Shown here one piece after another: positions 2,992 to 28,015 of a stretch of DNA of 64,000 bases. The stretch lies in contig VMGJ01000004.1 in NCBI GenBank assembly GCA_007376485.1, positions 6,717-70,716 of the forward strand, in the 5' to 3' direction. This stretch comes from Parcubacteria group bacterium Licking1014_17 (GTDB lineage: Bacteria > Patescibacteriota > Minisyncoccia > 2-02-FULL-40-12 > IGHO2-01-FULL-4-A). The translations under genes were made by a program, and so were the position numbers. The notes under the pieces were generated by a model, which saw nothing but the letters and a program-made list of their open reading frames with translations, was not told where the DNA came from and did no database searches. The stretch's first letter is position 1. Every line of letters begins with the position of its first letter.

Positions 2992-3846
2992 GTGAGATTC
3001 TTTAATTGTTTCTTGTTGGCATTTCTGGTTTTTTCTTTGGCTATCCCCCTCCCCCTTGGTGCGGAAATCATCCGAGCCAAGGACCGAAGAGTCCCCCAAT
3101 CGAGCGAGGGTACCATCGAGGTCGCGGGTGCAGGGGCTCCTCAGGCCGCTCCGCCAGCAACAGTTCCCCAAGTCCTTCAGTGGAAACCGTCCATTAGGAG
3201 AACAAACCCCTTTGTCCGCGGTGGGTTCCCGTCGTGGGAATCTGTGAAAAGATTTTCTCAAAGCCAGAAATTTGAGGTCTTCAAGAAAAATCTGCGATCC
3301 TATGAAGGATTCGCCGAAGGAGAATGGGGAAATATCATCGACACGATATCTAGGGGGACCACCAAAAATGTGGTGTTTGTAGAAATACCCCCCGGTATGG
3401 TGGTGCATCAGATGATGAGTGGCACCCGAATGATCCCGGAGGTTCAAGTGGCCGAGAGCCCAGCCCCTGCGTGGGCGATTTATACGGGGTATAGATGGCT
3501 CCTCTTTTTCCAATGTTGCGGGAATATTAGTTGGGTAGGACCGGATAAGATTTCGATACCCTCCCAAGAATTCGAAGAAAAACCCGTGCAGATTGAAAAA
3601 GAACCATCGCCAGTACCGACACCTACGCCCTCTGAGGCGGTTAAACCATCCCGTGTGATAAAAGAGTGGGTCCAGCCACCGCCGTGCGCGACGCACAAGA
3701 AAAGCAGCAAGAAGAAGTGGCTGGCGGCGATCATTGGTGGTGTTGCCATCTCCGCTGGTATTGCTATTGGTACTCGAGGACATGGCGAAAGCCATCCGCT
3801 GGACCCGGTTACTCATACGAACGATCGAGTACCTTCTAGCCATTAA
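2992..3846 (+). CDS. secreted Pro/Arg/Gly-rich hypothetical protein with C-terminal TM anchor (GTG start)
   Basis: RBS ggaggtga 6 nt upstream of GTG; clear signal peptide MRFFNCFLLAFLVFSLAIPLPLGA; competes with an antisense 302-aa ORF (2935..3843), judged spurious because the + frame has SD + signal peptide. Confidence 0.5.
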   Translation: MRFFNCFLLAFLVFSLAIPLPLGAEIIRAKDRRVPQSSEGTIEVAGAGAPQAAPPATVPQVLQWKPSIRRTNPFVRGGFPSWESVKRFSQSQKFEVFKKNLRSYEGFAEGEWGNIIDTISRGTTKNVVFVEIPPGMVVHQMMSGTRMIPEVQVAESPAPAWAIYTGYRWLLFFQCCGNISWVGPDKISIPSQEFEEKPVQIEKEPSPVPTPTPSEAVKPSRVIKEWVQPPPCATHKKSSKKKWLAAIIGGVAISAGIAIGTRGHGESHPLDPVTHTNDRVPSSH

Positions 3847-4152: not shown

Positions 4153-7100
4153 ATGAATACCATCAAAAACAGCAAGGTATGGTTTATCGCAGTGCCATTG
4201 GTCGTTCTGGCAATTTTTGCCGTACCAATGCTAATCACGGAGAATGCTAATGCTATCTCCTTTGATACGTTAAATGCCAGGTTTGTTTCCTACGAAAACG
4301 TGCCGACAACTCTTTGCACAGATGAAGTGCATTTGGTCACTATGACCCTGCAAAATACCGGCACCGAAACATGGACTTCGGCCAAAAATATCAGGCTTGG
4401 CTCTCAAAATCCGGAGAACAACAATAACTGGGGATGGACCAGAGTTGACTTGGAAGAGCATGTTGTTGCGCCCAGCCAGCATTTGGTTCTTACTTTTTAC
4501 ATCCGCGCGCCTCTTACCGCCGGAACTTATAATTTCCAATGGGGGATGCTTCAGGAAAATGTTACTTGGTTTGGGGACTACACGGCTAATATGCCAATTC
4601 AGGTAAAAAATTGCGGCACGCCAACTCCTACCCCAACTCCGACACCGACTTCTTCTCCTACCGAATTAAAATGCCCGATTAGCAACGCGGCCAATAGAAC
4701 AATATTTACTTTCCCTGAAAGAAACTCGGAATATATTAGGGCCAACAGGACTCAAGAAGAAGCCACTTTCGGTCCGGATTCATTTAATTTAGCTAGTGGC
4801 ATTTATAAAGTTACTTTGGTGTCTTTTGATTGGCACTCAATTTATGGAGGTCAAAACCAGTCAAACGAACAATATAAAGTAATCCTGAAAAACGGAGGCG
4901 CTACGGTTGCCACCTCCAACGCCAGCGCCGATATTCCGGAAAGTCAGGATTGGCAGACAACGGTTACCAACACCGCGCTCGCGCTAACTGGTGCCGCGAA
5001 TTCAATAACCGCCATTCATGCTTTTTACCCGACTTCCAACGCCAACAGCTTGATTCCAATCTGCGCCGCGTTTGATTTGGTTCAACAGCAACCGGTTTTA
5101 CCTACTGTTAATATTAAGGCCAACGGCTCGGATGGACCTATCACGATTGATTACAATACTTCCACTACTTTGAGCTGGACATCCAAGAATGCCACGAGTT
5201 GTGTCGCTTCAAATGGCTGGAGCGGAACGAAGGCTACCTCTGGTTCCGAATCAACCGGTAATCTAACCTCAAATCACACCTACACTATAACCTGCAGCAA
5301 TGCCAACGGTTCCGACACCGATAGCGTGACTGTTAAAGTAAGGCAGCAAGAGGTTTTGCCCACCGTCGACATAAAAGCCAACGGCTCGGACGGGCCAATC
5401 ACGGTTGACTACAACACATCGGCTAATTTGAGCTGGACTTCAAGCAACGCTACGAGTTGTGTTGCTTCCGATGATTGGTCAGGCAGTAAAGCCACTTCAG
5501 GTTCGGAATCAACCGGTAATCTGACTTCAAATAAAACCTTCACTATAACTTGCAATAATCAATTCGGTTCCGATACCGACAGCGTAACTGTAAAAGTAAG
5601 ACAGGCCACATTGCCTACTGTCGACATCAAGGCCAACGGCTCTAATGGACCGATTACGATTAATTACAACACATCGGCTACCTTAAGTTGGAATTCAACC
5701 AATGCTGACTCTTGTGTCGCTTCAAACGGCTGGAGTGGAAACAAATCTACTTCGGGATCCGAATCAACGGGCAACCTGACCTCAAATAAAACATATACTA
5801 TCACCTGTTCAAATCAGTATGGTTCTGATTCAGACAGCGTAACGGTGAATGTGAGCCAGGCGGTTTTACCTACCGTTGACATTAAAGCTAATAGTTCGGA
5901 TGGGCCTATCACGATTAATTACAACACTTCAGCTACTTTGGGCTGGACATCAACTAATGCTGACAGCTGTGTTGCTTCAAATGGCTGGAGCGGAAACAAA
6001 TCAACCAGCGGCTCGGAATCAACAGGTAATCTAACATCAAACCACGTCTATACTATTACTTGTAGTAATACTAATGGCTCGGCCAGCGATTCTGTAACGG
6101 TTAACGTCCAGAACCAAGTAATACCTACGGTCAATCTTTTGGCTAATGGCTCCCACGGTTCGATTACGATTAATTACAACACTTCGGCTAATTTAAGCTG
6201 GGATTCAACTAATGCCAATTATTGTATTGCTTCAAATGATTGGAGCGGCAGTAAATCAACCAACGGTTCGGAATCAACGGGCAATCTGACAAACACCAGA
6301 ACTTATACTATCACCTGCTACAATAACAACGGCTCCGCCTCCGATTCAGTCACGGTTTACGTTAATAATCAGAACAACTATCCAACTGTTGATTTGCTCG
6401 CCAATGGTTCACATGGCTCAATTACGATTCCGAACAATACTTCCACTACTTTGAGCTGGAGCTCAAGCAATGCCAATACGTGTTATGCTTTCAACGGCTG
6501 GACCGGCACAAAGTCAACTTATGGTTCTGAATCAACCGGCAACTTAACTTACAGCAAGACTTATACAATCTCTTGCAGTAATTCTTACGGCTCCGCCTCC
6601 GATTCAGTCACGGTTAATGTCGGAAATCCCACGGGCCAAGACATGGTCAGCCTCCAGAAATTCGGTTCAAATATTACCCGCGGGCAGAGTGGCGACTACT
6701 CAACCATCACGGTTTACCCGAATGACACCGTCAGATTCGCGATTCACGTTACTTCACTGACTTCCAACACTCTGTATAACGTTAGAATAAGCGATGCCTT
6801 GCCGGCTGGGTTTACTTACGTGAACAGCAGCACGACACTTGACGGCATTCTTGTCAGCGACGGAATCACCAATACCGGCATCAACATCGGCACGTTGACT
6901 CCGAATCAGGAAAGAATTGTCCGTTTTGACGCAAGAGCCGCTTCAGGTTCCGGATTAACGGCTGGCACCTCGTATGTAAGCAATATCGCCTACGCCGACG
7001 CCGATAGTATGAACCGCGTTACGACCCAGCTTTCTATCACGATAGTCAATAGCACTGTTCCTAACGTTCCAACCGGTACTACGGGTACGGTTGCCATGGC

Positions 7101-8062: not shown

Positions 8063-11000
8063 ATGGAAATCATACCGGCACCAGTAAAGACACCTTTTTA
8101 TAAAAAACCTGGTTTTTGGTTTCTGACCCTTTTGTTTTTGCTTCTCATCAGGGCGGAAGTTTATGTGTTGAGCGTTGACCGGCAGGTAAACCAAGTTGCC
8201 CTAATAAGCGCCACAGGCGCCGGCTGCACGACTCTTGCCCATCCCATCGCGGTAAAAGTCAGCATGCCGAATTCTCAAGAAAGCGGCTGGTTCATTGGGG
8301 TGGGTGATATCCCCGGCGCTGCCGCCTTTGACGAATCAAACATTAAAGCAGCTATTCAGAATTGGCCAGACGTTGACGGGCTTTTCGTTGGCACGGCCAA
8401 CGGTGATGGCGCGGGCGGTCCTGATGGTACTACCGATGACCGCGCCGGCTGGTTCATTATGGACTGGGGTTGTTTTAAAGATTTAGCCGGAAACGACATC
8501 GCTGAACAAGAATACGGCGTAAACGAAGGAGGAGACATATATGTGGGAACAAGCGCCACAAGCTTAAATGTTAACCCCACGCATCTATCGGGCAATCCCA
8601 ACGCTTCGGGCTGGAAGTATGTAAGCAGCATATCAGAATCCGGTTGTAGCAATTGTCTCAATAGTTTCGATATAGGATTAAATAACGGCGCTGAGTACAA
8701 ATATGTCTATTTTTGGAGCAATGGCAGTCCGGCGGGGTGCGCACCGAGTTGCATCCAACAAGAAATAGATAATGGCACCTGCAAATGCGGGATAGATGAT
8801 AGGTCTTGTGGTTGTCGTGCCAATGGAACCGTGGGGATTTCCGGTTCCAATGTTCAATATATAGAAATACTACAATCACAAAACGGCGGCACGCCTACCC
8901 CGACGCCCAAACCGACGTCTACGCCAACCTCGACACCAACCCAACAGAGTAATAATTCTCAGTGCGTCAGCATTTCCGCTCCCGACACAGTAGAGCAGGG
9001 CAAGACATTTGACGCCACGGTGGTAATGAAAAACACCGGCGCTAAGCCGTGGACCGACCCCGACAATCCGCCCGATCCGGTTGGAGGCAAAGCAACTCCT
9101 CATAAACTCGCTTCCACAAATCCACGTGCCAATATGACGTGGGGGCTGAATGAAGTCGGTCTGCCTGTCTCTAATGTCGACCCGGGAGAAAAGGCGACAT
9201 TTAATTTCAGCGTCACCGCTCCCGCAACCGCCGGCACTTACAGTTTCGCCTGGCAAATGAGAGAAGACTGGATTAAATGGTTTGGGGCGGTTTGCAGCAA
9301 AAACATACAAGTAGTCCAGCCGGCTCTCGTGAATAACGCCGAATGTGTGAGTATCACGGCGCCGGATTCGGTTGAAAAAGGCAAGACATTTGACGCCACG
9401 GTGGTAATGAAAAACACCGGCGCTAAGCCGTGGTCGGATCCCGACACCGACGGTAACAGTTACCCCCATAAACTCGGCTCGGATAATCCGAAAAATAATA
9501 TGAATTGGGGGCTTTCGAGAGTGAGCTTGCCGTTATCGCCCGTGTTGCCCGGCCAAACCGCGACGTTTGATTTTACCGCCACCGCTCCTTCGGTTGCCGG
9601 CATTTACGCGTTCGACTGGAGAATGGTTGAGGAATGGACCGAATGGTTTGGCACGGCGGGCTGTCATAAAAATATCGTTGTTACGGAACCCTACGTCCCT
9701 CCGCCCACCGTTGACATTAAAGCCAATAATTCTGATGGACCCATAACAATTCCCTACAACTCATCCGCCGCGTTATCATGGACATCTAAAAATACCGCGA
9801 GCTGTACCGCCTCGAACGGCTGGAGCGGAATGAAATCAATCAATGGTTCCGAATCAACCGGCGGTTTAATTTCTTCAAAAACTTATACTATTAGCTGTGT
9901 AGGCGCCAACGGAACGGCTTCTGACAGTGTTACTGTCAATGTCGAAAACCGGATATTACCCGTGGTGGATATCAATGCCAACGGCTCGGATGGACCGATT
10001 ACTGTTCCCTATAACTCATCGGTTTCTTTGACCTGGACATCAACCGATGCCGATAGTTGCTCTGCTTCCGGCGATTGGTCCGGCGGCAAAGCCACGGGCG
10101 GGACGGAAGATACCTCGGCGCTAATCAGCAGTAAGACCTATACAATCACTTGTAACAACCAGTACGGTTCGGATTCCGACAGCGTCACTGTCAATGTCGG
10201 CAGTCAAACTTTACCTTCGGTAGACGTAAAAGCCAACGGCTCGGACGGACCAATTACAATTCCTTATAATTCCACAGTGACATTGAGCTGGACTTCCATA
10301 AACGCTACTACTTGCGCCGCTTCCGGCGATTGGTCCGGCGGCAAAGCAATCAATGGTTCGGAAAATACCGGCTTACTGGCATTGAGCCGCATTTATACAA
10401 TCACCTGCGTAAATGGTTACGGTTCCGGTTCGGATAGCGTTGCCATTAATATAAGCAATCCAACCCCAACCCTGAACCCAACTCCAAGCCCGAATAGTTC
10501 CGGCTCGGTTAGCATTCAAAAATTCGGGATGAATATAACCAAGGGAGCGACGGTTGAATCCATAAGTATTACCGCCGATCCGAATGACACAGTCAGATTC
10601 GTCATCAGAGTGCGCTCTCTTTCCAATGGCTACGTCTTCAACGCCAGGGTGGTTGATACCTTGCCCAGCTGGTTAGGTTATGTAAACGGCAGCACTACTA
10701 TCGACGGTATTCTTGTCAGTGATGGCATAACGGGCGCCGGGCTGAATATCGGAACGCTTGCTCTGAATCAGGAAAAAATCATCCGTTTCGACACGGTGGT
10801 ATCGAACGCAAACATCGTCCCGCAGGGAACTTCTTACATTACAAATATCGCCTACATTGACGCCGACAACGTTGCCCGCTCCTCTGTCCAGCTGTCCATT
10901 AATATCGTAAACGGCTCCGTTCCCAACATTCCGACGGGAACTTTCGGCACAACTTTGCTGGCATTGGCGTTGAGCGCCTTACTGACGCTCGTCTACCTCA

Positions 11001-12320: not shown

Positions 12321-13631
12321 TTGTATTTTATGTTGAATCAAGAAGAACTTAAAGTATTACAGGAAATAGCCCACGAGAAAGGTGGTAAGTGTTTGTCTAA
12401 AGAATATAGGGGTTCCAATTTTAAGCTTCTCTGGGAGTGTAGCTTGGGTCACAGATGGCTATCTGCGCCCTGTAAAATAAAGGGAGGTAGATGGTGTCAT
12501 ACGTGCGCTGGAAATATCAAGTTAACTATAGATGAAATGCATAAAATCGCGAAACTTCGTGGTGGTAGATGTTTGTCTACGAAGTATACTAATATTGACA
12601 CAAAATTAGAATGGGAGTGTTCTGACGGTCATCATTGGGTTGCTACGCCAGATACTATTAAGGGAGGTGGATGGTGTCCCTATTGCGGTTTAAGAGGGAT
12701 AAGAGAGAATTTTTGCCGCTTGATATTAGAAAATATATTTAACAAAAATTTCCCTAAAGTAAGTCCAGTATGGCTAAAAACAAAAGACGGCAATAGAATG
12801 GAGCTTGATGGCTACTGTAATGATTTGAAGCTTGCTTTTGAATACCACGGAGAGCAACATTTTAAGAACTTAAAATTTTTTTACAGAAACCGTGGCTCGC
12901 TTCAACAAAGGATAACCTATGACAAGTACAAGAGGAAACTTTGTGAAAAAATACAGATAAAATTAATTGAAATCCCATATCTTATAGAGGACAAGGATAT
13001 ATATCAATACATACTAGCTAAATTGAAGGAGTTAAGAGTTAGAATCCCCAAACATAACGCCAAAAATATTTCAAAAATTAATAAGCAATATCTTAATAGT
13101 AGGTTGAAATATTTTTATCAAATAGCTAGTAAAAGAGGTGGTAAATGTTTATCTAGTGTCTATTTGGGTATCAATCATAAACTTAGATGGCGGTGCTCCG
13201 AGGGACACATATGGAAAGCAACGCCATCAAACGTAAAGAGGTACCACTGGTGCCCATCGTGTGCAGGCTGTAAGAGTTATACAATCAACAAGATTAGGGA
13301 GCTTGCGAAACTTCGTGGTGGTAAGTGTTTATCTACCGAGTATAAAGGCGCACATGGTAAACTTAAGTGGCAGTGCTCCAAAGGACACATATGGGAGACC
13401 ACACCGGACAGTATAAGGAACGGGACGTGGTGCCCCAAGTGCAATGGTAATATTAGTTACACTATTGATGAAATCAGCGAACTTGCGAAATCGTGCGGTG
13501 GCAAGTGCTTATCAAAAAAATATGGGGGTGCACATGGTAAACTTAAGTGGCAATGTTCTGAAGGACATATATGGGAAACTACACCTAATAGTATAAGGAG
13601 AGGGACATGGTGTCTAAAATGTAGAAGTTAA
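12321..13631 (+). CDS. multi-zinc-ribbon repeat protein with central Vsr/DUF559-like PD-(D/E)xK nuclease-fold domain
   Basis: Five ~45-aa repeats (R/K)GG(K/R)CLS..Y....KL.W.C..GH.W...P..I..G.WCP.C, each preceded by a helix (EI.ELAKLRGG). Central block ELDGY...LAFEYHGEQHF...YDKYKRKLCEKIQIKLIEIPY matches the lvIEvDG..H...D..R..L...G signature of DUF559/Vsr-like endonucleases. Confidence 0.6.
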   Translation: MYFMLNQEELKVLQEIAHEKGGKCLSKEYRGSNFKLLWECSLGHRWLSAPCKIKGGRWCHTCAGNIKLTIDEMHKIAKLRGGRCLSTKYTNIDTKLEWECSDGHHWVATPDTIKGGGWCPYCGLRGIRENFCRLILENIFNKNFPKVSPVWLKTKDGNRMELDGYCNDLKLAFEYHGEQHFKNLKFFYRNRGSLQQRITYDKYKRKLCEKIQIKLIEIPYLIEDKDIYQYILAKLKELRVRIPKHNAKNISKINKQYLNSRLKYFYQIASKRGGKCLSSVYLGINHKLRWRCSEGHIWKATPSNVKRYHWCPSCAGCKSYTINKIRELAKLRGGKCLSTEYKGAHGKLKWQCSKGHIWETTPDSIRNGTWCPKCNGNISYTIDEISELAKSCGGKCLSKKYGGAHGKLKWQCSEGHIWETTPNSIRRGTWCLKCRS

Positions 13632-14960: not shown

Positions 14961-15734
14961 ATGAAGAAAATACTATTGATCGTCTTTGTTTCCGCCGCGG
15001 CGATGGTGTTAGCCGTGTCTTCCGCCCGAGCCGACAATGTTTACGCGATTACCGCTAGCCCCTCATATTCTGACACTTTCACTCTTGGCGGATCGGCTTT
15101 GGTCGGGTACAAAATTACATCTACCAATAGCGATGGTCAGACCGGTTGTAATGCCAGCGACGGCACGTCGGCTGTTGTCACTATAATAGCCCCTGACCAT
15201 ATAACTCCAACTCCGCCTTCGCTTACATTCACTAAATGCAGTGTCGCTAATTCTAACATTCAGGATGTGGTGTTTACCGCCGATCAAGCCGGCGATTATA
15301 TCATCGGCGCTTCGGCTTCCGACGCCGGAATTGGAACTTATGACACAGTGGCACACGGGATATTCACGCTTCATGTTTTGCCCGGATCAAGTCCAACCCC
15401 GTCTCCATCCGAAACACCTACACCTACACCATCCCCCACACCAACTCCTTCTCCAACGCCTACGCCGAGTCCTACCCCATCGCCATCTCCGACACCCACA
15501 ACGACTTTAACTCCATCGCCCACGCCGACTCCTTCTCTATCTCCCACACCGACTTCTTCCCCGACACCTACACTAACCCCGACTCCGACCCCCTCGCCCA
15601 CACCCACCCCGTCATCTACGCCATCGCCCTCGCCTTCACCATCAGACAAATTTAAAATGCCAACAATTGACAATTTCTTTATTCTAAATAAATTCCGAGC
15701 AATTTGGGCCAAGTGGCATCAGTTGGGATTCTGA
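14961..15734 (+). CDS. secreted protein: signal peptide, ~140-aa N-terminal domain, long (PTPSPT)n low-complexity linker
   Basis: ORF translation; signal peptide [24 protein letters not shown]. Confidence 0.6.
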
Positions 15735-20852: not shown

Positions 20853-20877
20853 GGTCAATTCCACCATTTGACCCGCT
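20853..20877 (+). repeat. left copy of a perfect 25-bp inverted repeat GGTCAATTCCACCATTTGACCCGCT (itself an imperfect palindrome GGTCAAtt-CCACC-atTTGACC)
   Basis: Exact reverse complement present at 25840-25864. Confidence 0.9.
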
Positions 20878-20915
20878 CGCCCCGCTGAAGCTCCGGTGAA
20901 GCAGGCAAAGCTCGT

Positions 20916-21416
20916 TTAGGAAGTAGGCGTTTGATAGCGGGCGTGTTCGGGAGGACCGACTTGCTTAAGCCGGTTTTCTTTGACTAATTGTTTTAGATAG
21001 CGGGTTGCCGTGGAATCGGAAATTCTCAAAGCGACTGCCGCTTCACGTGCCGAAATGACCTGCTTTTTTTGCGCCAACTTTATAATTTTTTCCAGTTTCG
21101 CCCGCTTTCTGGCAAATAAAACTTCATTTGCTTTGCGCAATAACACCGTAAAAAATCCTTCGTCTTTTTGCGCCGGCTGAACGGGCGCATTTTGAGTCGG
21201 CGTTGGTGGCGGTACAACTACCGGCTTTGTCGGCGCGGAATTTGATTCCGCGTTTGTTTCTGGGCTTGGCTGGGATTCTGTCGGCGCCGTTTCTATCGTC
21301 TGCTCTTGCGCCGCTCCCGACTCTGGTGCCACGGCTTCAGGCGTTTCCGTTGAAACCGAAGTTTCCATCGGCACTGATTGTTGAGTATCAGAAGGCGTTT
21401 GTGTTTCGTCGGACAT
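20916..21416 (-). CDS. DNA-binding protein: long disordered S/T/P/Q/E-rich N-terminus + C-terminal winged-HTH
   Basis: 166 aa; C-terminal ISAREAAVALRISDSTATRYLKQLVKENRLKQVG is a typical HTH recognition region. Confidence 0.5.
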   Translation of the reverse strand: MSDETQTPSDTQQSVPMETSVSTETPEAVAPESGAAQEQTIETAPTESQPSPETNAESNSAPTKPVVVPPPTPTQNAPVQPAQKDEGFFTVLLRKANEVLFARKRAKLEKIIKLAQKKQVISAREAAVALRISDSTATRYLKQLVKENRLKQVGPPEHARYQTPTS

Positions 21417-21522
21417 AATTATATTTTATCCTTACTAATAAAACTACCTCCTTTTCCGGGCAAGCAGAGATTCTTCTTTTTCTTCAGTTGAAACTCTGGC
21501 GAGTATTGCAGCTTTCATAAAC

Positions 21523-22374
21523 TTAATTCAACTTTTTAGTATCGTTTTTAGGTGGTAAAAAGTTCTGCGTGCTGACCACCTTTTTCCCCGTTTGTTGCTC
21601 TAGTGCTCTTCTTGCATCGCCAGAAATTCGTCCTCCCTTTTGCCCCGCTTTTGCATTTTCGTTATATCCTCTTGCCTGTTCGGTTTTTGCTATTTGCGTA
21701 GTTGAGAGTTCGGCTAACGCGGTAAAAATCAATTCTGCCTCAGTCATATTGTCTCTTAGGTTTTGACCTTTTAGTTCTTTAATTCTTTTGTGTGTCTTTG
21801 TTGTTAAACCACTCCACTCGTAATGAATAATGTCGGTGAGTTTGGCGTATTCAATGCCTTTTTGCACGCCACTCTCTTGCCAATAATCAGTCAATTTGTT
21901 TCTTGTTTCTTGGCCTCTCATTCTTTGCTCAATCCATTTCTCTGACATACCTACTTGCTTCCAATGGCTTCTCGCTCTGTCCACTGCCAGTTCTGGGTTT
22001 ATGGTTTCCTGCAGTCTCTCATAGCCAACTCTAGCCAGCCATTGCTTAAAGGGTTCGGCTTTGGGAGAGGGTATGCTTTGAATTACCCTTAAAACCGTCT
22101 CTGTGTCTGCCACATCGGTTTTATAGTTTTTGCCGTCTTTTGCTCGCATTTTCAGTTGTCCCAAAGATTGGGACAACTCACTACCCTCCTGCTTTAGCTT
22201 AGTTTTTAGGGCATTCCAATACTTTCTAGGTCTTGGGCTTCCACTTAATACTTCCACGACATCAACAATCGCAAAATACCATTGCTCTTTTTCCTCGTCC
22301 CAAGCCCTGCGGACAGGGACATTTTCAAAATTAACGATTAGTTTTTCTGATTGCATTATATGTTTTTTCTCCAT
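21523..22374 (-). CDS. Bro-N domain / DinD-like (DNA-damage-inducible protein D family) protein
   Basis: 283 aa; N-terminal FENVPVRRAWDEEKEQWYFAIVDVVEVL (Bro-N); C-terminal KELKGQNLRDNMTEAELIFTALAELSTTQIAK parallels E. coli DinD KGLKKNQKILDHMGSTELAANLFRATQTEEKL. Confidence 0.55.
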   Translation of the reverse strand: MEKKHIMQSEKLIVNFENVPVRRAWDEEKEQWYFAIVDVVEVLSGSPRPRKYWNALKTKLKQEGSELSQSLGQLKMRAKDGKNYKTDVADTETVLRVIQSIPSPKAEPFKQWLARVGYERLQETINPELAVDRARSHWKQVGMSEKWIEQRMRGQETRNKLTDYWQESGVQKGIEYAKLTDIIHYEWSGLTTKTHKRIKELKGQNLRDNMTEAELIFTALAELSTTQIAKTEQARGYNENAKAGQKGGRISGDARRALEQQTGKKVVSTQNFLPPKNDTKKLN

Positions 22375-22451
22375 AGATTTTAATTTATCTACTTAAAATT
22401 ATTTTCAAATTTTTGAGAATTTAGAAATATACATATTGTGAAAAGTCATAA

Positions 22452-22769
22452 TTAAAGCAGAATATTTTTACATTTTGGACATTGCCCCGTACCTACTAAT
22501 AGTCCAATCATAGTACCACATTTAGAACACGAGAGGTCACTATACGTTGAATCTGATATTTTTATAGCAGTGGTCAGACCATCTGCTGATTGCACTTTTA
22601 TATTCGATAATTTATTGACTATCACGTTTGCCGCTTGACCGCCGCTTTGATTAATAGTTGTTACGGAATGACTGATTCCAATCTCCTTTTTGTTAAAATT
22701 CAAAAATCTCAATCTCAGTGAGCCAAATAATTTTTTAAAAATACCGGACATATAATTCAGAAATTCCAT
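22452..22769 (-). CDS. small hypothetical protein with C-terminal zinc ribbon (CSKCG...CPKC); 13-nt overlap with upstream RM gene
   Basis: ORF translation. Confidence 0.4.
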   Translation of the reverse strand: MEFLNYMSGIFKKLFGSLRLRFLNFNKKEIGISHSVTTINQSGGQAANVIVNKLSNIKVQSADGLTTAIKISDSTYSDLSCSKCGTMIGLLVGTGQCPKCKNILL

Positions 22770-25700
22770 ATTTTATCAATTTCTCTCATTATTCTATCGG
22801 TTTCGACCAAGGCGACAATCATTTGTTGATAGTGTCTTAAATCTTCGTCAATTAATTCACGGCATTTGCGGTCCTTGAGCCATTTTTGCGCCGGCTGATA
22901 GCCGCCTATCCAAAAGTTCCAGGCGATTTCAGGCACGTTATCAAAATATTGAGTGGCATTTATGTACGCCTTACCGTCTTTGTATTCAACTTTCTCAATT
23001 TTATTTGTCCCGGCTATATTATAATCCGTGATGAATTGATTGACTTTTGGCGACTCCAGCAGATGTAGGCCGCGAAGCTCGCACCCCAAAGCGACAAGCG
23101 CCTGAAATTGTTTCTTGTCCTTCGGATATGGCACGCGAGGAAAATCAATTTTGAGAAACTCTTTGTATTTCTCACGATACTTTGGCGAATGCAAAACTGC
23201 ATAGATATAATCAAAAATATCCTCTGGTGTAACTTTGCCGGCAATCTTCTCAATTTCAGCAACAATCTCTGTTTTCAAATTAAGTATCCTTACGTCGTTG
23301 GTAAATGTGTAGAACGGAAATATATAAGTCTGATCGCTTGCCGCGTGAATATCAGAAATAGATCGAGTTACAAATACACGATCAAATAATTGATTAGCAG
23401 GAATGGTTCGACTAGATAGTAAAGATAGATTCTCTTTTTTCACTATGTTTATGTTTGTCTTTTCTCTCGGATAAGCGATAAAACCTTTTGAGTTGCCGGT
23501 ATATATGGTATAACGCACATCAAAAGGCCTGTATTGAATTTGCTCAACGCTATAACCCTTTCGTAAGTCATCCTGTGCCCACTTGATTTTCCAATCTCGT
23601 CCATCTTCAGGTAACTGATATTTATCTTGCACCTCTTTTTCTGTAAGTTTTTTGAAATCATCCGCTACTTTTTCTATGCTGTCCAACGAGAATTGAATAA
23701 CCGTATCATCCCGCTTCGTTTGAATACCAGAATTATAGTGTAAAAATAGCTCATCAATTTTGAATCCCTCGTCATATTCGCTCTTTGCTCTGAAATTCTT
23801 AGGCACAAAGAAATAGTAAGGTTCTGAATAATCCAGTTTTTGCCACTTAATTTTTTGTATATCGGATGCATTAAGTGTCTCGAATTTTTCTTCGCGCTTG
23901 CCGAATAATTCTGAGTGATAAACAGTGCCGAGCTTTTTTTTATCCGCGTTTTTGCGGACAAAAATATTTATTGATACCCCCTGCTGGATACTAAAAACAT
24001 TTTCATCGTTTGCCTCCTTTTTTCTGGCATTGCCGTGCAAGTCCAAAATATAAACAGCGTCAAATGTTTCAAGTAGGTGTTTTCTCATCTGCCGATGGGT
24101 AATACCATCTATGAAAGAATTATTAGTAATCATTGCAACGATACCGGTCTTGTTTTTCTCAATAAAATGCTCGGCGAAACGAATGAACTTAATGTAGTCG
24201 TCGTCAAGATTTATCTTGCGCTCGCCTAGGCCTTTTTTATAGTCCTTAATAAGATTTAAAATCCACTCACCTTTATTTGAAGAACTAATGCTATAAGGTG
24301 GATTACCGAGAACTACCATAATAGGCCTATCATTTTTTATAACAGCCGCTTCTTTTGCTTCTTCGGCTATGCTTTCCGCAAAACCAAATGAGAGTAAATC
24401 CGGCTGGACACTGCTTTCTTCAAGAGAATTCGTAAGGAAAACATTCAACCGCGCGTTATTGAAATATTTAAAACCAGTTTCTTTTAGCATCATGCCGATT
24501 TTTAAATGAGCGATTACGTATGGCGCCATCATCAGCTCAAAGCCATATATTCTCGGCAAAAGGTCGTGAAGGACATATGCCGGCCATCGGCCTTGTTGGT
24601 TTGAAAATTTATCGTGGATATTTTGTACCGTTTCGCTTAAAAATGTGCCCGTGCCCACGGCCGGATCAAGAATTTGCACTTTATGCACGGCTCCCGCTTT
24701 TGCTGTATCGGCTAATCCTTGCGGGAGGTTAAATTCTTTTTTAAGCAGTTCATCAACTGACCGAACGATGAATCTGACTACCAGAAGTGGCGTGTAATAT
24801 GCTCCCATTTTTTTGCGAAGCTCGGCGTCATATTCTTTCAAAAAGTCTTCGTAAAAATGAATGACCGGGTCAAGCCCTTCGTGTATCTTTCCAAATAAAT
24901 CTTTCTGCTTATAATACTGCTCCATAAGCGCGCGCACGTCCGTCAGTGAGAAGACCTCGCACAATTCATTAACAATATAGCCGAGCCGTTTATCAAAATC
25001 CGGGCCGATAATGTGGTCAAAAAAGTGCCGAAGCAATGGATTGGAAGCGGGCACAAGTTCGCGGGCTTTTTGTCGAGTGAAAGGTTCCGATGATTCGTCA
25101 TAATAGCGCGCGACAAAAAGCCCATACACAAGCGTCTGGGCATACATATCAGCGAAGGTATCAGGAGTTAAGTCGTGTACAAGTAATTTCTTTACAATTT
25201 CGTACACGCGCTTTATCTCTCCATAATCATCTATGTTTGAAGAGAAAATGTGCCTTACATTATCGCGTATGCGCCGGGCTTTGCCGCCCATAATTTTGGC
25301 TAAAAGAGCTCCGTTTTTAATCGGTTCCGGTTTGCCCGAAAGAAAATTTATCAGGGCATTAGCAAGAGTATCGTAATTCTCGGAATTACCAACAATACGA
25401 CCATTCTGAATTGATGCTATAACGATAGGTTCTTCGTAACGCTGACCGTTTTGATAAAAACGAAATTCTATATAGTTAGTAAGAATAAAGTTAGTATAAC
25501 CCGAGATATATCGTTGCAACTGTTCGCTCCGTTCCATCTTGTTAATATCGACATCAACGTCCTTTGTTTCCGCATAACCGAGCTGAATTTCCCCACGTGT
25601 AAAAACGAAATCGGGCGCACCAAATTCGGAGTGTTTTGGTTCGTTCAGTGATCGCGCCTTGACGCCTATATCCGCTATAAGTCCTTCGAGTGCCGAACGA

Positions 25701-25792
25701 TATGTATGTTCCCGTGCTTGGCCGGTGGCATATTTTTCCGCAAGAGCGGCGACATATTTCGCAACGGATTCAGATTGATTCATTGAGCGCAA
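22757..25792 (-). CDS. Type IIG restriction-modification enzyme (MmeI-like fused PD-ExK endonuclease / gamma-class N6-adenine methyltransferase / TRD)
   Basis: 1011 aa; N-terminal APDFVFTRGEIQLGYAETKD (D..E.K nuclease motif), MTase motif I ILDPAVGTGTFL and motif IV VVLGNPPYSISS, ~400-aa C-terminal specificity region. Confidence 0.75.
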   Translation of the reverse strand: MRSMNQSESVAKYVAALAEKYATGQAREHTYRSALEGLIADIGVKARSLNEPKHSEFGAPDFVFTRGEIQLGYAETKDVDVDINKMERSEQLQRYISGYTNFILTNYIEFRFYQNGQRYEEPIVIASIQNGRIVGNSENYDTLANALINFLSGKPEPIKNGALLAKIMGGKARRIRDNVRHIFSSNIDDYGEIKRVYEIVKKLLVHDLTPDTFADMYAQTLVYGLFVARYYDESSEPFTRQKARELVPASNPLLRHFFDHIIGPDFDKRLGYIVNELCEVFSLTDVRALMEQYYKQKDLFGKIHEGLDPVIHFYEDFLKEYDAELRKKMGAYYTPLLVVRFIVRSVDELLKKEFNLPQGLADTAKAGAVHKVQILDPAVGTGTFLSETVQNIHDKFSNQQGRWPAYVLHDLLPRIYGFELMMAPYVIAHLKIGMMLKETGFKYFNNARLNVFLTNSLEESSVQPDLLSFGFAESIAEEAKEAAVIKNDRPIMVVLGNPPYSISSSNKGEWILNLIKDYKKGLGERKINLDDDYIKFIRFAEHFIEKNKTGIVAMITNNSFIDGITHRQMRKHLLETFDAVYILDLHGNARKKEANDENVFSIQQGVSINIFVRKNADKKKLGTVYHSELFGKREEKFETLNASDIQKIKWQKLDYSEPYYFFVPKNFRAKSEYDEGFKIDELFLHYNSGIQTKRDDTVIQFSLDSIEKVADDFKKLTEKEVQDKYQLPEDGRDWKIKWAQDDLRKGYSVEQIQYRPFDVRYTIYTGNSKGFIAYPREKTNINIVKKENLSLLSSRTIPANQLFDRVFVTRSISDIHAASDQTYIFPFYTFTNDVRILNLKTEIVAEIEKIAGKVTPEDIFDYIYAVLHSPKYREKYKEFLKIDFPRVPYPKDKKQFQALVALGCELRGLHLLESPKVNQFITDYNIAGTNKIEKVEYKDGKAYINATQYFDNVPEIAWNFWIGGYQPAQKWLKDRKCRELIDEDLRHYQQMIVALVETDRIMREIDKIWNF

Positions 25793-25839
25793 TTATACCC
25801 CGAAATCGCACAGAAAGCCAGTGCCAAAATGTACCGACC

Positions 25840-25864
25840 AGCGGGTCAAATGGTGGAATTGACC
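25840..25864 (-). repeat. right copy of the 25-bp inverted repeat, 48 nt upstream of the RM start codon
   Basis: agcgggtcaaatggtggaattgacc = reverse complement of 20853-20877. Confidence 0.9.
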
Positions 25865-25879
25865 CACAACTACTTTTGC

Positions 25880-26175
25880 AACCCCGCCCAAGTTTCGCAG
25901 GGCAAAATTCAGAAGGGCGAGCCGGCTCTTTTGAGGGCTGTTGAAGTCGCCGGCAGCACGGTTTTGTCAACGACCGAGAGGACATTCTCACATTCTTGAG
26001 AATGTGAGAATGTCCTTGAATGTCTTGACAAATGCCAGCGACTTCACCAGATGGATTTTCTTCGCTGGAGAAAATCCAGTCCCGAAAAAGAGTTGGCAAG
26101 CCCGCATGCCGGATTTTTAAGTCGGGTATAGCAAACCCGCCCAAATTTTGCAGAGCAAAACTTCGGCGGGCAAAA
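25880..26175. repeat. hairpin-dense noncoding tract: perfect 16-bp-stem hairpin (25980-26015) nested in a longer palindrome (25964-26031), second hairpin (26053-26077), and two divergent copies of a ~45-nt hairpin motif (25880-25925; 26132-26175)
   Basis: ggacattctcacattc-ttga-gaatgtgagaatgtcc; ttgtcaa...ttgacaa; ggattttc...gaaaatcc; accccgcccaagtttcgcagggcaaaa vs aacccgcccaaattttgcagagcaaaa. Confidence 0.8.
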
Positions 26176-26305
26176 CTATCAACAATTTATCCTCTTTATT
26201 GTTGACCTGCGCGCTCTTGGTTGCTACATCTGCTTAATACTAACGTTGTTGAAAACCAAAACGCGGATTCCTGTTAGAATGTATTAGGTAATAAAATAAA
26301 TATTC

Positions 26306-28015
26306 ATGCCTGACGGCAAACAAGCGACAAATCAATCTCCGATTACGCCGGTCCAGACCGGCAAGGAGCAGGAATTGGAGGCAAAATTGGGTGAAATTCA
26401 GGCTAAACACCTTGAAGAAGAGGCAATATTGAGGTCGCAGAAGTCCGGCGTGCCGTATATAGACCTGAAAACTTTCCCGGTTGATACCGGCACCGTGGCA
26501 ATGATTGACGAAGAAGCGGCGCGCAGAGCCAAAGTCGCCGCCGTCGCCAGCAAAGCCGGAGTTATGAGCATCGTTGTAAACGACCCCGACAACCCGGAAG
26601 CGAAATCAATCATTAAGTCATTTGAAGACAGAGGCCTTGTCTGCAAGGTTTTTGTGGTTTCTGAAATCGGGCTCGCGAAAGCCTGGGCCAGATACAAATA
26701 CGCCAAAGAAAGAAAAGCGGAGGTGAGCGGAATGGTAAAAATTGACGAGTCGGCCATTGACGCCCTCGAACAACAAATCAATAGTTTAAAAGACCTCAAA
26801 GACAGGATTGTATCCATATCAATCACGCAACTGCTTGATATGCTCATCGCCGGCGCGTTAAAAATAAACGCCTCCGACATCCATTTTGAAGCGAAAGAAA
26901 CAAACATCCGTTTGCGGTACCGCCTGGACGGTATGCTTACGGACGTGGTTGATTTTTCGCCAACCGGTTATCCGAATTTGCTCAGCAGAATAAAACTTGT
27001 TTCGGGCATGAAGCTTAATATCCACGACAAGCCACAGGACGGACGCTTCACCATTAGGCGCAAGGATTTGGATATTGAAGTGCGTGTTTCGATTCTCCCC
27101 GGACCTAACGGCGAGAATATCGTGATGCGCATACTCGACCCCCGGACTATCCAGCAAAATCTGGAAGATATGGGCATGCGCCCGGACACATTGAGAACAA
27201 TGAACGAAATGCTCAAAAAAACGACCGGCTCAATACTCACCACGGGGCCAACTGGTTCGGGCAAGACCACGACTTTATACGCGTTCATCAGAAAAATAAA
27301 CGCTCCCGATTTGAAAATAATCACCATTGAAGACCCGGTTGAATATCACGTAAAAGGAGTTCAGCAAACCCAGGTGGACCCGGAAGCCGGCTACACATTC
27401 GCTAATGGTCTCCGTGCCATCGTCAGACAGGACCCAGATGTTATATTGGTCGGCGAAATCAGGGACAAAGAAACCGCCGATATCGCCATGCAGGCGGCGC
27501 TTACTGGCCATCTGGTTTTTTCGACGATCCACACGAACAGCGCTGCCGGCACCGTTCCTCGCCTAATCGACTTAGGCGTGAGACCCCAAACCATAGGACC
27601 AGCAGTAAACGCTATGATGGCCCAGCGGCTTTTAAGGCGCCTTTGCTCGAAATGTAAGAAAAAACAGCTTATTAAAAAAGAGGATTACGATTTATTGAAA
27701 AAATATCTGACCGATGTCCCCATGGAAATCATAAAAGAGATTGATATCCCCAAAATAAGCGAAAATATGGAGATATATTACCCGGCTGGCTGCGCCGAAT
27801 GCAATGACACCGGCTATAAAGGCAGAGTGGGAGTTTACGAAATAATATTAATGGACAAGGATTTGGATAAATTAATTGCCCAGATGCCGTCAATTTCGCA
27901 GGTCGAAGAATTAGCGGTTAAAAAAGGAATGATATCTTTATTAAAAGACGGTTTCTTGAGGGTTTTGTCCGGAATAACATCCGTAGAGGAAGTATTAAGA
28001 ATTATAGGCGAATAA
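26306..28015 (+). CDS. type II/IV secretion-family assembly ATPase (PilB/GspE-like)
   Basis: 569 aa; GspE N-terminal domain, Walker A GPTGSGKTTTL, Asp and His boxes, C-terminal tetracysteine CSKC...CAEC. Confidence 0.85.
   Translation: MPDGKQATNQSPITPVQTGKEQELEAKLGEIQAKHLEEEAILRSQKSGVPYIDLKTFPVDTGTVAMIDEEAARRAKVAAVASKAGVMSIVVNDPDNPEAKSIIKSFEDRGLVCKVFVVSEIGLAKAWARYKYAKERKAEVSGMVKIDESAIDALEQQINSLKDLKDRIVSISITQLLDMLIAGALKINASDIHFEAKETNIRLRYRLDGMLTDVVDFSPTGYPNLLSRIKLVSGMKLNIHDKPQDGRFTIRRKDLDIEVRVSILPGPNGENIVMRILDPRTIQQNLEDMGMRPDTLRTMNEMLKKTTGSILTTGPTGSGKTTTLYAFIRKINAPDLKIITIEDPVEYHVKGVQQTQVDPEAGYTFANGLRAIVRQDPDVILVGEIRDKETADIAMQAALTGHLVFSTIHTNSAAGTVPRLIDLGVRPQTIGPAVNAMMAQRLLRRLCSKCKKKQLIKKEDYDLLKKYLTDVPMEIIKEIDIPKISENMEIYYPAGCAECNDTGYKGRVGVYEIILMDKDLDKLIAQMPSISQVEELAVKKGMISLLKDGFLRVLSGITSVEEVLRIIGE

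Follow-up and report, generated by a model that had tools for sequence, protein, structure and literature searches.

A probable pile-up of palindromic insertions upstream of a pilB-like gene in a Parcubacteria genome, and the 35-bp hairpin family at its ends

What does a noncoding tract full of hairpins do directly upstream of a pilus gene? The question arises in a 64,000-nucleotide stretch of contig VMGJ01000004.1 of Parcubacteria group bacterium Licking1014_17 (the window; all positions count from its first letter), where a hairpin tract lies between a type ISP/IIG restriction-modification (RM) gene (22757-25792, minus strand) and a pilB-like gene (26306-28015, plus strand). An earlier note, made from the sequence alone, had seen several separate hairpins there and had suggested small RNAs, stacks of terminators or insulators, repetitive extragenic palindromic (REP)-like elements or binding sites that regulate pilB. 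We favor another answer. With a probability of roughly 0.6, the tract is a pile-up, specific to this lineage, of selfish palindromic insertions in the spacer between the divergent genes nusA and pilB, similar in kind to MITEs (miniature inverted-repeat transposable elements), hairpins of paired REP sequences (REPINs) or Rickettsia palindromic elements (RPEs).

All hairpins of the earlier note are present; they turned out to be layers and side branches of one nested, imperfect palindrome of 302 bp (25874-26175) rather than separate structures. Four inverted-repeat pairs share a common centre at 25997/25998, namely, from the outside inward, I1 (25883-25909 / 26144-26170, terminal arms of about 27 nt with 81% complementarity), I3 (25915-25937 / 26081-26103, 74%), I4 (25938-25955 / 26033-26050, 89%) and I2 (25979-25996 / 25999-26016). 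The last is the perfect hairpin noted before as a 16-bp stem with a 4-nt loop at 25980-26015, and its stem indeed holds the tandem GAGAATGT x2. Outside of it, ttgtcaa (25964-25970) pairs with ttgacaa (26025-26031), which confirms the outer pair at 25964-26031. The second hairpin of the note (26053-26077), with 100% complementary arms at 26052-26061 / 26069-26078, sits within a 29-nt indel of the right arm that is bounded by the direct repeat CCAG (26047-26050, 26076-26079). Over 112 positions, the two palindrome arms align at 88% identity and carry indels; hence, the palindrome is not an assembly artefact. The stretch 25870-26185 is predicted to fold into a single long hairpin, from whose right arm two small side branches protrude. 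As plus-strand RNA it reaches −150.6 kcal/mol compared with −90 ± 4.9 for shuffles (z = −12.4), the minus strand gives z = −10.9 and DNA parameters z = −10.0, and in none of the three tests did a shuffle equal the real tract.

The statement that no open reading frame (ORF) fits the tract also holds. Six ORFs of 40-124 aa overlap it without any Pfam match, and a search of the 124-aa ORF against 1.84 billion representative proteins gave two matches only (22-36% identity over 25-79 aa), which are spurious because their targets are tandem-repeat proteins. Within the window, the arm sequence of the central hairpin occurs once and the inner palindrome has no second copy; in IMG/VR, the central-hairpin sequence has no exact match. 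We rejected a nested insertion of the central perfect hairpin, as no flanking duplication was visible by eye. A replication origin was likewise discarded: the CTATCAACAA / TTATCC box is DnaA-like, but the GC skew does not switch at 26 kb, and TTATCMACA lacks enrichment, with 2 occurrences for 1.2 expected.

Is the palindrome part of an ancestral pilB control region? Identity to the nearest PilB homologues is only about 62%, so that there is no close relative for a comparison at the nucleotide level. Three relatives chosen through PilB, L132 (a Yanofskybacteria metagenome-assembled genome, MAG), L133 and L134, nevertheless keep the gene order of the window, tig-nusA | pilB-ruvB-yebC-ruvC-tyrS-PBP, with tig-nusA on the opposite strand. 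Their nusA-pilB spacers measure 295, 405 and 277 nt, respectively. In the window, the spacer of 5615 nt is the sum of an RM cassette (5012), the palindrome (302) and a remainder of 301 nt, and once cassette and palindrome are removed, this remainder aligns block by block with the spacers of the relatives. Common to all are the nusA-side hairpin, the CTATCAACAATTTATCC box, TTGACC-N17-TACATC and GTTGTTGAAAAC...TGTTAGAAT. By contrast, the cassette is absent from the same spacer in L132, L133 and L134, and the palindrome has no similarity to any of the three; homology of its right arm to an extra 120 nt in the L133 spacer was rejected as not significant.

The conserved pilB upstream blocks are intact and begin at the right edge of the palindrome (26176-26283), where the CTATCAACAATTTATCC box starts 1 nt past the right CAAA of a short direct repeat and right after the last paired base. 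The earlier note had named a lack of conservation in relatives as speaking against its reading, and the 302 bp are indeed missing from the spacers of three syntenic relatives. From the absence of both palindrome and cassette there it follows that the tract is a lineage-specific insertion and not a conserved pilB regulator. Binding sites for pilB regulation thus find no support within the tract, since the conserved blocks lie downstream of it. The consensus promoter scan gave TTGACC-N17-TACATC no score, and its role as a promoter is one that we infer.

The layout upstream of pilB is itself kept in the relatives (window 26176-26283, L132 4870-4990, L134 4836-4960). Around the TTGACC-N17-TAnAnC promoter-like element, which is followed by TGTTA(G/A)AAT, two boxes, TATCAACA and TGTTGA(A/G)AAC, make up an inverted repeat. 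In the relatives, the CTATCAACAATTTATCC box pairs as an inverted repeat with the TGTTGA box, and the TATCAACA and TGTTGA boxes may be an operator pair for some regulator.

If the palindrome arrived as an insertion, its ends are of particular interest. The earlier note had described two copies of a motif of about 45 nt; both exist (25878-25918 and 26131-26171 are 78% identical), whereas the direct orientation implied for them does not hold. They match the family profile described below on opposite strands and are mutually inverted, and a search of the 64-kb window with this profile found these two terminal copies only. Copy 1 is degenerate, with four mismatches in its 3′ arm on the plus strand, and its flanks CAAC / CGAG show no duplication. 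Copy 2 is identical in 32/32 positions to the copy of another locus, L082, and is flanked on both sides by CAAA, the signature that insertions of this family leave. We read it as a recent insertion; an allele lacking copy 2 would read ...TATAGCAAAACTATC... at the junction.

The family unit is a 35-bp hairpin with 16-bp arms and a 3-nt loop. Its core reads CCCGCC-W-AA-R-TTTTGC, then the loop (often GAA or TTC), then GCAAAA-Y-TT-N-GGCGGG. The flank consensus is yTT(A/G)-CCCGCC...GGCGGG-(T/C)AAr and contains neither a GTAG nor a CGTC tag; the flanks of the loci are mutually unrelated. A 25-nt degenerate half-site pattern taken from the two window copies retrieved 4 MAGs (three Saccharibacteria and one 'Patescibacteria group' bacterium), with chance matches estimated at about 0.01 in 596 Gb, and a related second pattern retrieved at least 120 loci in JGI metagenomes, mostly from groundwater and sediment. 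Judged by the genomes that carry it, the family appears to span at least two Patescibacteria classes. Copy number is low: most loci have one copy in the 834 kb fetched, with about 1 extra copy per 70 kb. Stem pairs are mostly at least 95% Watson-Crick, pair 4/32 with 84%. Pairs 1/35, 15/21 and 16/20 stay Watson-Crick through compensatory changes, with six cases of T-A at pair 1/35 and four of T-A or C-G at pair 15/21. Two pairs are non-Watson-Crick, pair 10/26 being A.C in 98 of 113 copies and pair 7/29 mostly A.A or T.T. The flanks of only 6/111 copies are complementary at z > 4, which makes the arrangement in the window unusual and led us to reject the notion that family hairpins usually cap longer palindromes.

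Searches for known relatives of these sequences came back empty. With Rfam 15, the whole window gave only tRNAs at the gathering threshold, the tract only weak unrelated matches at E up to 10, and eighteen family loci only one tRNA and one 5S rRNA at E up to 0.01; a known RNA family was hence rejected at gathering and permissive thresholds alike. The family motif has no exact match in IMG/VR, its 43-nt consensus none in plasmids by BLAST, and the 302-bp palindrome no BLAST match in phages, and a phage or plasmid origin was rejected on these grounds. The literature on the sequence and on palindromic repeats in these phyla, of which our coverage was incomplete, yielded no description, and the 35-bp family is provisionally considered as apparently undescribed.

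Where the family hairpin sits and how it comes and goes bear on its nature. About 40% of the copies (53/131) lie inside ORFs, long housekeeping genes included. Pfam confirmed in-frame copies in topoisomerase I (TopA), cysteinyl-tRNA synthetase (CysRS), a GatA-type amidase, DinB and a Mur ligase, and MiaA is a further host; one copy lies at the 5′ end of a DegV ORF, ahead of the DegV domain. In the usual reading frame, the hairpin encodes R(Q/P/L)(N/S)FAxQN(L/F)GG. Further copies were found in 23S-5S spacers and within the 16S rRNA genes of L041 and L024, the latter a gene with LAGLIDADG ORFs. MiaA provided the decisive test. Of 120 homologues compared at 67-100% identity, about 97 lack an insert, and about 14 carry TRQNFAxQNLGGF, 13 additional residues that follow KRQMTWF; the filled count comprises 12 found by an automatic pattern plus P0139 and the decayed P0123, added by eye. 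At the DNA level, the MiaA gene of L128 differs from those of L126/L127 by exactly 39 nt, with the same downstream sequence, as L128 reads TGG-TTCA-[35-nt core]-TTCA-AAAG and L126/L127 read TGG-TTCA-AAAG. The MiaA genes of L122 and L129 differ in the same pattern with TTTA. Perfect 4-nt flanking repeats occur in 18/122 distinct copies compared with 2.0 expected (z = 12.8). From the exact allele differences of 35 nt plus 4 nt and from these repeats it follows that the 35-bp unit behaves like a discrete insert that duplicates 4 nt of its target.

How could such a pile-up have formed? The inner palindrome of about 190 bp (25915-26103) would have come first, either by inverted duplication or as a second MITE-like element, and small palindromic insertions would have followed, including one family hairpin at each end in inverted orientation. 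The family unit itself would be moved by an enzyme supplied in trans, and its fixed arm differences at positions 7 and 10 might correspond to the unequal left and right ends of a parent element. It lands in spacers, in rRNA genes and, if the reading frame stays open, in housekeeping genes. The insert in the window most likely has no dedicated function, although so stable a hairpin might, as a side effect, be extruded as a cruciform or stand in the way of stray transcription. We also put forward, tentatively and as something we would not bet on, a bolder version: the 35-bp hairpin may be the smallest bacterial transposable unit described so far, two abutted transposon ends moved by a Patescibacteria enzyme into essential genes, rRNA and spacers across the radiation, and the 302-bp palindrome a REPIN-like replicative composite; or else its strict sequence and two fixed mismatches might be the mark of a phylum-wide DNA or RNA signal. 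The features of the locus are compiled in Table 1.

Table 1. Positions of the palindrome, its components and its neighbors in the window.
Feature	Position	Strand	Basis
Right 25-bp inverted repeat of RM cassette	25840-25864	none	perfect partner at 20853-20877
Whole composite imperfect palindrome, 302 bp	25874-26175	none	nested repeats I1-I4, folds, arm alignment, absence from the L132-L134 spacer
Family hairpin copy 1	25883-25917	-	nhmmer family profile E = 6.6e-6 (-), 0.058 (+)
Left inner palindrome arm	25915-25955	none	left halves of I3 and I4
Central perfect hairpin, 38 bp (18-nt arms, 2-nt gap)	25979-26016	none	I2; GAGAATGT x2 on each strand
Right inner palindrome arm	26033-26103	none	right halves of I4 and I3; split by the 29-nt hairpin insert
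29-nt segment in right arm only (indel)	26051-26079	+	gap in arm alignment; I9 hairpin TGGATTTTCT / AGAAAATCCA
Second segment in right arm only, 28 nt, small side hairpin in fold	26104-26131	+	fold and arm alignment
Left CAAA of 4-nt direct repeat flanking copy 2 (putative target-site duplication)	26132-26135	+	
Family hairpin copy 2, well-kept 35-bp core CCCGCCCAAATTTTGC-AGA-GCAAAACTTCGGCGGG	26136-26170	+	nhmmer E = 1e-12
Right CAAA of 4-nt direct repeat flanking copy 2	26171-26174	+	
Conserved box CTATCAACAATTTATCC, first block of ancestral pilB upstream region	26176-26192	+	four-spacer alignment
Promoter-like TTGACC-N17-TACATC	26202-26230	+	alignment; position kept in relatives as TTGACC-N17-TAAACC
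Conserved GTTGTTGAAAAC ... TGTTAGAAT block near pilB start, extended -10-like (putative function)	26245-26280	+	alignment

Several further observations concern the surroundings of family hairpins. Some of the rRNA-linked ones (L041 6389-6423; L024 ~6765 and ~8140-8174; L056 1047-1081; L105 5374-5408; L053 3491-3525) adjoin LAGLIDADG homing-endonuclease ORFs and group I introns, and one rRNA-linked subgroup has the common flanks GACTATATCTTCA ... GCGTATTAT. The MiaA genes of L126/L127 and L128 are identical past the hairpin site and divergent upstream (alignment A2, columns 149-231 vs 1-100), with the upstream part of L128 closer to L129, which suggests a recombination breakpoint at or near the hairpin. 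At the same MiaA codon site, after (T/S)WF, L135 and L136 have two other palindromic inserts, a G+C-rich one of 30 nt (TCCACCCACGGCGGATCCGCCTCGGGCGGA) and one of 60 nt that consists of CACCAAATTGGTG and a diverged family hairpin; further variants at the protein level are HPAPEQARCGAS and TPPAPHSYRY. The site thus appears to be a hot spot of several mini-insert families. In L080, three family units stand in tandem at 3570-3700 (one arm alone, a hairpin shortened to 32 nt and a complete one), and about 300 nt off, at 3184-3296, two family-like arms, 81 nt apart, straddle the start of an ORF for a small membrane protein. Palindromic inserts hence tend to gather at the same places. In L053 (~3465-3550, minus strand) and L110 (~725-790), a hairpin directly follows a tRNA-like 5′ fragment (GTAGCTCAGTTGGC), in L053 with a T-arm-like ...TTCAAATC...CCA after it. 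ARAGORN called no tRNA at either hairpin, and a tRNA was rejected there; the element may have disrupted a tRNA gene at these two loci, or they may hold a mini-structure that resembles a tRNA. Finally, a sigma-factor-like ORF (L021 800-1426) contains a tandemly duplicated 15-aa segment (VDELRSSPPLANARV x2), and an FtsW/RodA-like (L095) and a YceG-like (L119) protein have odd short segments, which may all be further in-frame mini-inserts.

The window itself holds other repeats (5086-6624 and 9689-10456; 12369-13607; 15383-15637; 60532-63706). These repeat sets include nine copies of a 255-258-nt unit that are 61-77% identical to a reference copy, 180-nt repeats coding a Cys-containing module, a long 12-nt-periodic run that would encode a Pro/Thr/Ser-rich sequence, and, close to the right end, three paralogous segments that have diverged.

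A number of points weigh against the insertion reading. Some concern our material: the family loci were found with a pattern that fixes much of the stem, the gene calls in these loci are crude longest-ORF calls, and only 64 kb of this genome were searched. The inner 215 nt have no match in any fetched locus, in IMG/VR or in phages, and with no second copy found, it is unproven that the 302-bp unit moves as a whole. The CTA(C/T) repeat that may flank it has little statistical weight. Within the family, only about 15% of the copies have a perfect duplication, and neither a transposase nor a parent insertion sequence (IS) with the family termini was found. Two last points are that hairpins persist at one and the same codon among orthologues that share only 42-53% identity, where synonymous positions are kept too, and that the A.C-mismatch strand is the sense strand in 54/83 oriented cases (54 vs 29, p = 0.008). 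Recurrent insertion at hot spots, of which the MiaA site is an example, could account for the persistence at the same codon. The strand bias is explained neither by pure selfishness nor by any of our tests.

With regard to a mobilizing enzyme, no neighboring gene family is enriched, the most frequent reaching at most 6 of about 120 loci. Moreover, 27 arm pairs spaced 60-4000 nt apart were found in about 0.85 Mb searched, and the candidates examined enclose no transposase; the L024 pair encloses the LAGLIDADG ORFs in the 16S gene and the L041 pair a membrane protein.

The persistence at the same codon and the strand bias would equally suit a different explanation, in which the 35-bp hairpin is a selected functional nucleic-acid signal across Patescibacteria, be it a site that a conserved protein binds or processes or a hairpin that serves the stability or processing of RNA, and the window tract a local duplication of such sites. 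A sequence that is nearly invariant in at least 120 unrelated contexts, with two stem positions conserved as non-Watson-Crick pairs, would also be expected from a signal. Yet near-identical alleles differ in presence or absence of the hairpin, and 4-nt duplications flank its core. The hairpin lies without regard to where genes start or stop, in rRNA genes as well as in ORF interiors in three frames, the MiaA site takes unrelated palindromes too, and the window locus is absent in relatives. In addition, the mRNA-sense strand forms the less stable hairpin. We therefore regard a signal as unlikely, even if it is the alternative that fares best. Two narrower ideas were discarded: a strict RNA element recognized by G.U wobbles, as the wobble-compatible strand is antisense in about two-thirds of the oriented cases, and a replication-strand polarity, as hairpin orientation is uncorrelated with GC skew.

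Slightly less probable still is that co-option has turned the palindrome into a bidirectional insulator or terminator against leakage between the RM cassette and the pilB promoter. Its location, exactly between the right inverted repeat of the cassette (25864) and the first conserved pilB box (26176), would be suited to such a role, as would the very high hairpin stability on both strands and two weak terminator-like sites inside the palindrome. However, the flanking genes diverge, so that no known transcript enters the palindrome and nothing is there to terminate. The main stems are not followed by U-tracts, the terminator count of 3 is unremarkable (1.0 ± 0.9 expected), and family hairpins are not enriched near stop codons. 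The terminator or insulator stack of the earlier note is thus without support.

The neighboring cassette offers another, similarly doubtful explanation, namely that the palindrome is part of the mobile unit of the cassette, such as an end, attachment site or origin, and that both arrived at once. The cassette (20853-25864, 5012 bp) has perfect 25-bp inverted repeats at its ends (GGTCAATTCCACCATTTGACCCGCT), the right one ending 9 nt from the palindrome, and encodes a helix-turn-helix (HTH) protein, a Bro-N protein, a small zinc-ribbon-like protein and the type ISP/IIG RM enzyme, with no transposase. Its G+C content is 0.40-0.42 compared with 0.46 in the flanks, its repeat has no exact match in IMG/VR, and it resembles a mobile insertion cassette moved in trans. 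Both inserts occupy the same few nt of the ancestral spacer, between AAGCTA and TATCAACAA, the three junctions show CTAC / CTAC / CTAT repeats, and the left cassette junction reads TTACCCGC, similar to a family arm. These features would fit a single arrival, but the 25-bp inverted repeats delimit a cassette that leaves the palindrome outside, a search with the family profile gives no match at the left junction, and copy 2 has its own clean duplication. The closest RM homologues (≤69% identity) stand in unrelated contexts without repeats or palindrome, and a conserved RM cassette that carries the palindrome was rejected for this reason.

Weakest of all, and very improbable in our view, is a structured small RNA or a long-hairpin antisense RNA pair regulating pilB or the RM system, for which the fold scores (z of −11 to −12 on both strands) and an extended -10-like TGnGAGAAT, spotted by reading on both strands of the central hairpin, might argue, but equal stability on both strands is what DNA palindromes give, the consensus scan scored no sigma-70-like promoter, Rfam has no match, no homologue of the inner sequence was found, and the tract is absent in syntenic relatives.

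Pile-up of selfish palindromic insertions hence remains our preferred reading of the tract. For the locus, it follows that the conserved pilB control region starts at 26176, and a riboregulator or terminator stack is unsupported. The locus itself is ordinary selfish DNA on this reading, and the family is the interesting part. Patescibacteria have reduced genomes that are thought to carry little repetitive DNA, and tiny mobile palindromes there lengthen essential enzymes by 12-13 residues and give rRNA extra stem-loops. Such elements may explain some of the short insertions in Patescibacteria proteins and rRNAs. Their presence/absence polymorphism offers strain-level markers, and the 4-nt duplication together with the unequal arms is a handle for finding the mobilizing enzyme.

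How does the family compare with known systems? As a G+C-clamped stem-loop in spacers it resembles an intrinsic terminator, but it has no U-tract, is fixed in sequence rather than in shape and also occurs inside ORFs and rRNA; the window tract, in turn, lies between divergent genes. In behavior, the one aspect compared, it is close to the RPEs reportedly described by Ogata et al. in 2000. Both are palindromic selfish DNA in reduced genomes, found in-frame in essential genes, in RNA genes and in spacers, and encode a peptide placed in tolerant regions. In-frame insertion with insert-less homologues was found in MiaA with exact boundaries. RPEs measure 100-150 bp and are confined to Rickettsia. 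The family unit, in contrast, is 35 bp long, spans, as it appears, at least two classes and has a 4-nt flanking duplication. RPEs are also mentioned in PMC1458961 and PMC10969869.

REPs, REPINs and bacterial interspersed mosaic elements (BIMEs) are extragenic, species-specific and present in hundreds of copies, with a GTAG or CGTC tag, no duplication and a REP-associated tyrosine transposase (RAYT) gene alongside (PMC3116915, PMC3733652). Like REPs, the family hairpins are palindromes, imperfect and about 35 nt long; in the window, an inverted doublet makes up a longer hairpin, as in REPINs, and the L080 cluster recalls the clustered mosaics of BIMEs. The REP-like elements of the earlier note were therefore apt insofar as a dispersed palindromic family is concerned. 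Membership among REPs does not hold, as the 35-bp copies are rare, often lie in genes, lack the tag and have the 4-nt duplication. No RAYT-like neighbor was seen among the 25 largest neighbor clusters (≤6 loci each), which were not scanned for Y1/HUH domains.

Known MITEs are about 50-600 bp long, with internal sequence and a recognizable parent IS, as exemplified by Correia/NEMIS (PMC10969869). Among the candidates examined, no related autonomous IS with matching ends was found. The family unit consists of two repeats and 3 nt only and is smaller than described MITEs, while the 302-bp composite is of MITE size but has a single known copy. In other respects, the likeness is close, comprising terminal inverted repeats (the arms of the unit and, in the composite, the I1 arms), a short target-site duplication, no transposase of its own, presence/absence polymorphism and occasional in-frame insertion. 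The duplication is of fixed length for the 35-bp unit, as seen in the flanking-repeat statistics, the MiaA alleles and the CAAA at copy 2. The unit thus behaves like a minimal MITE reduced to its terminal inverted repeats.

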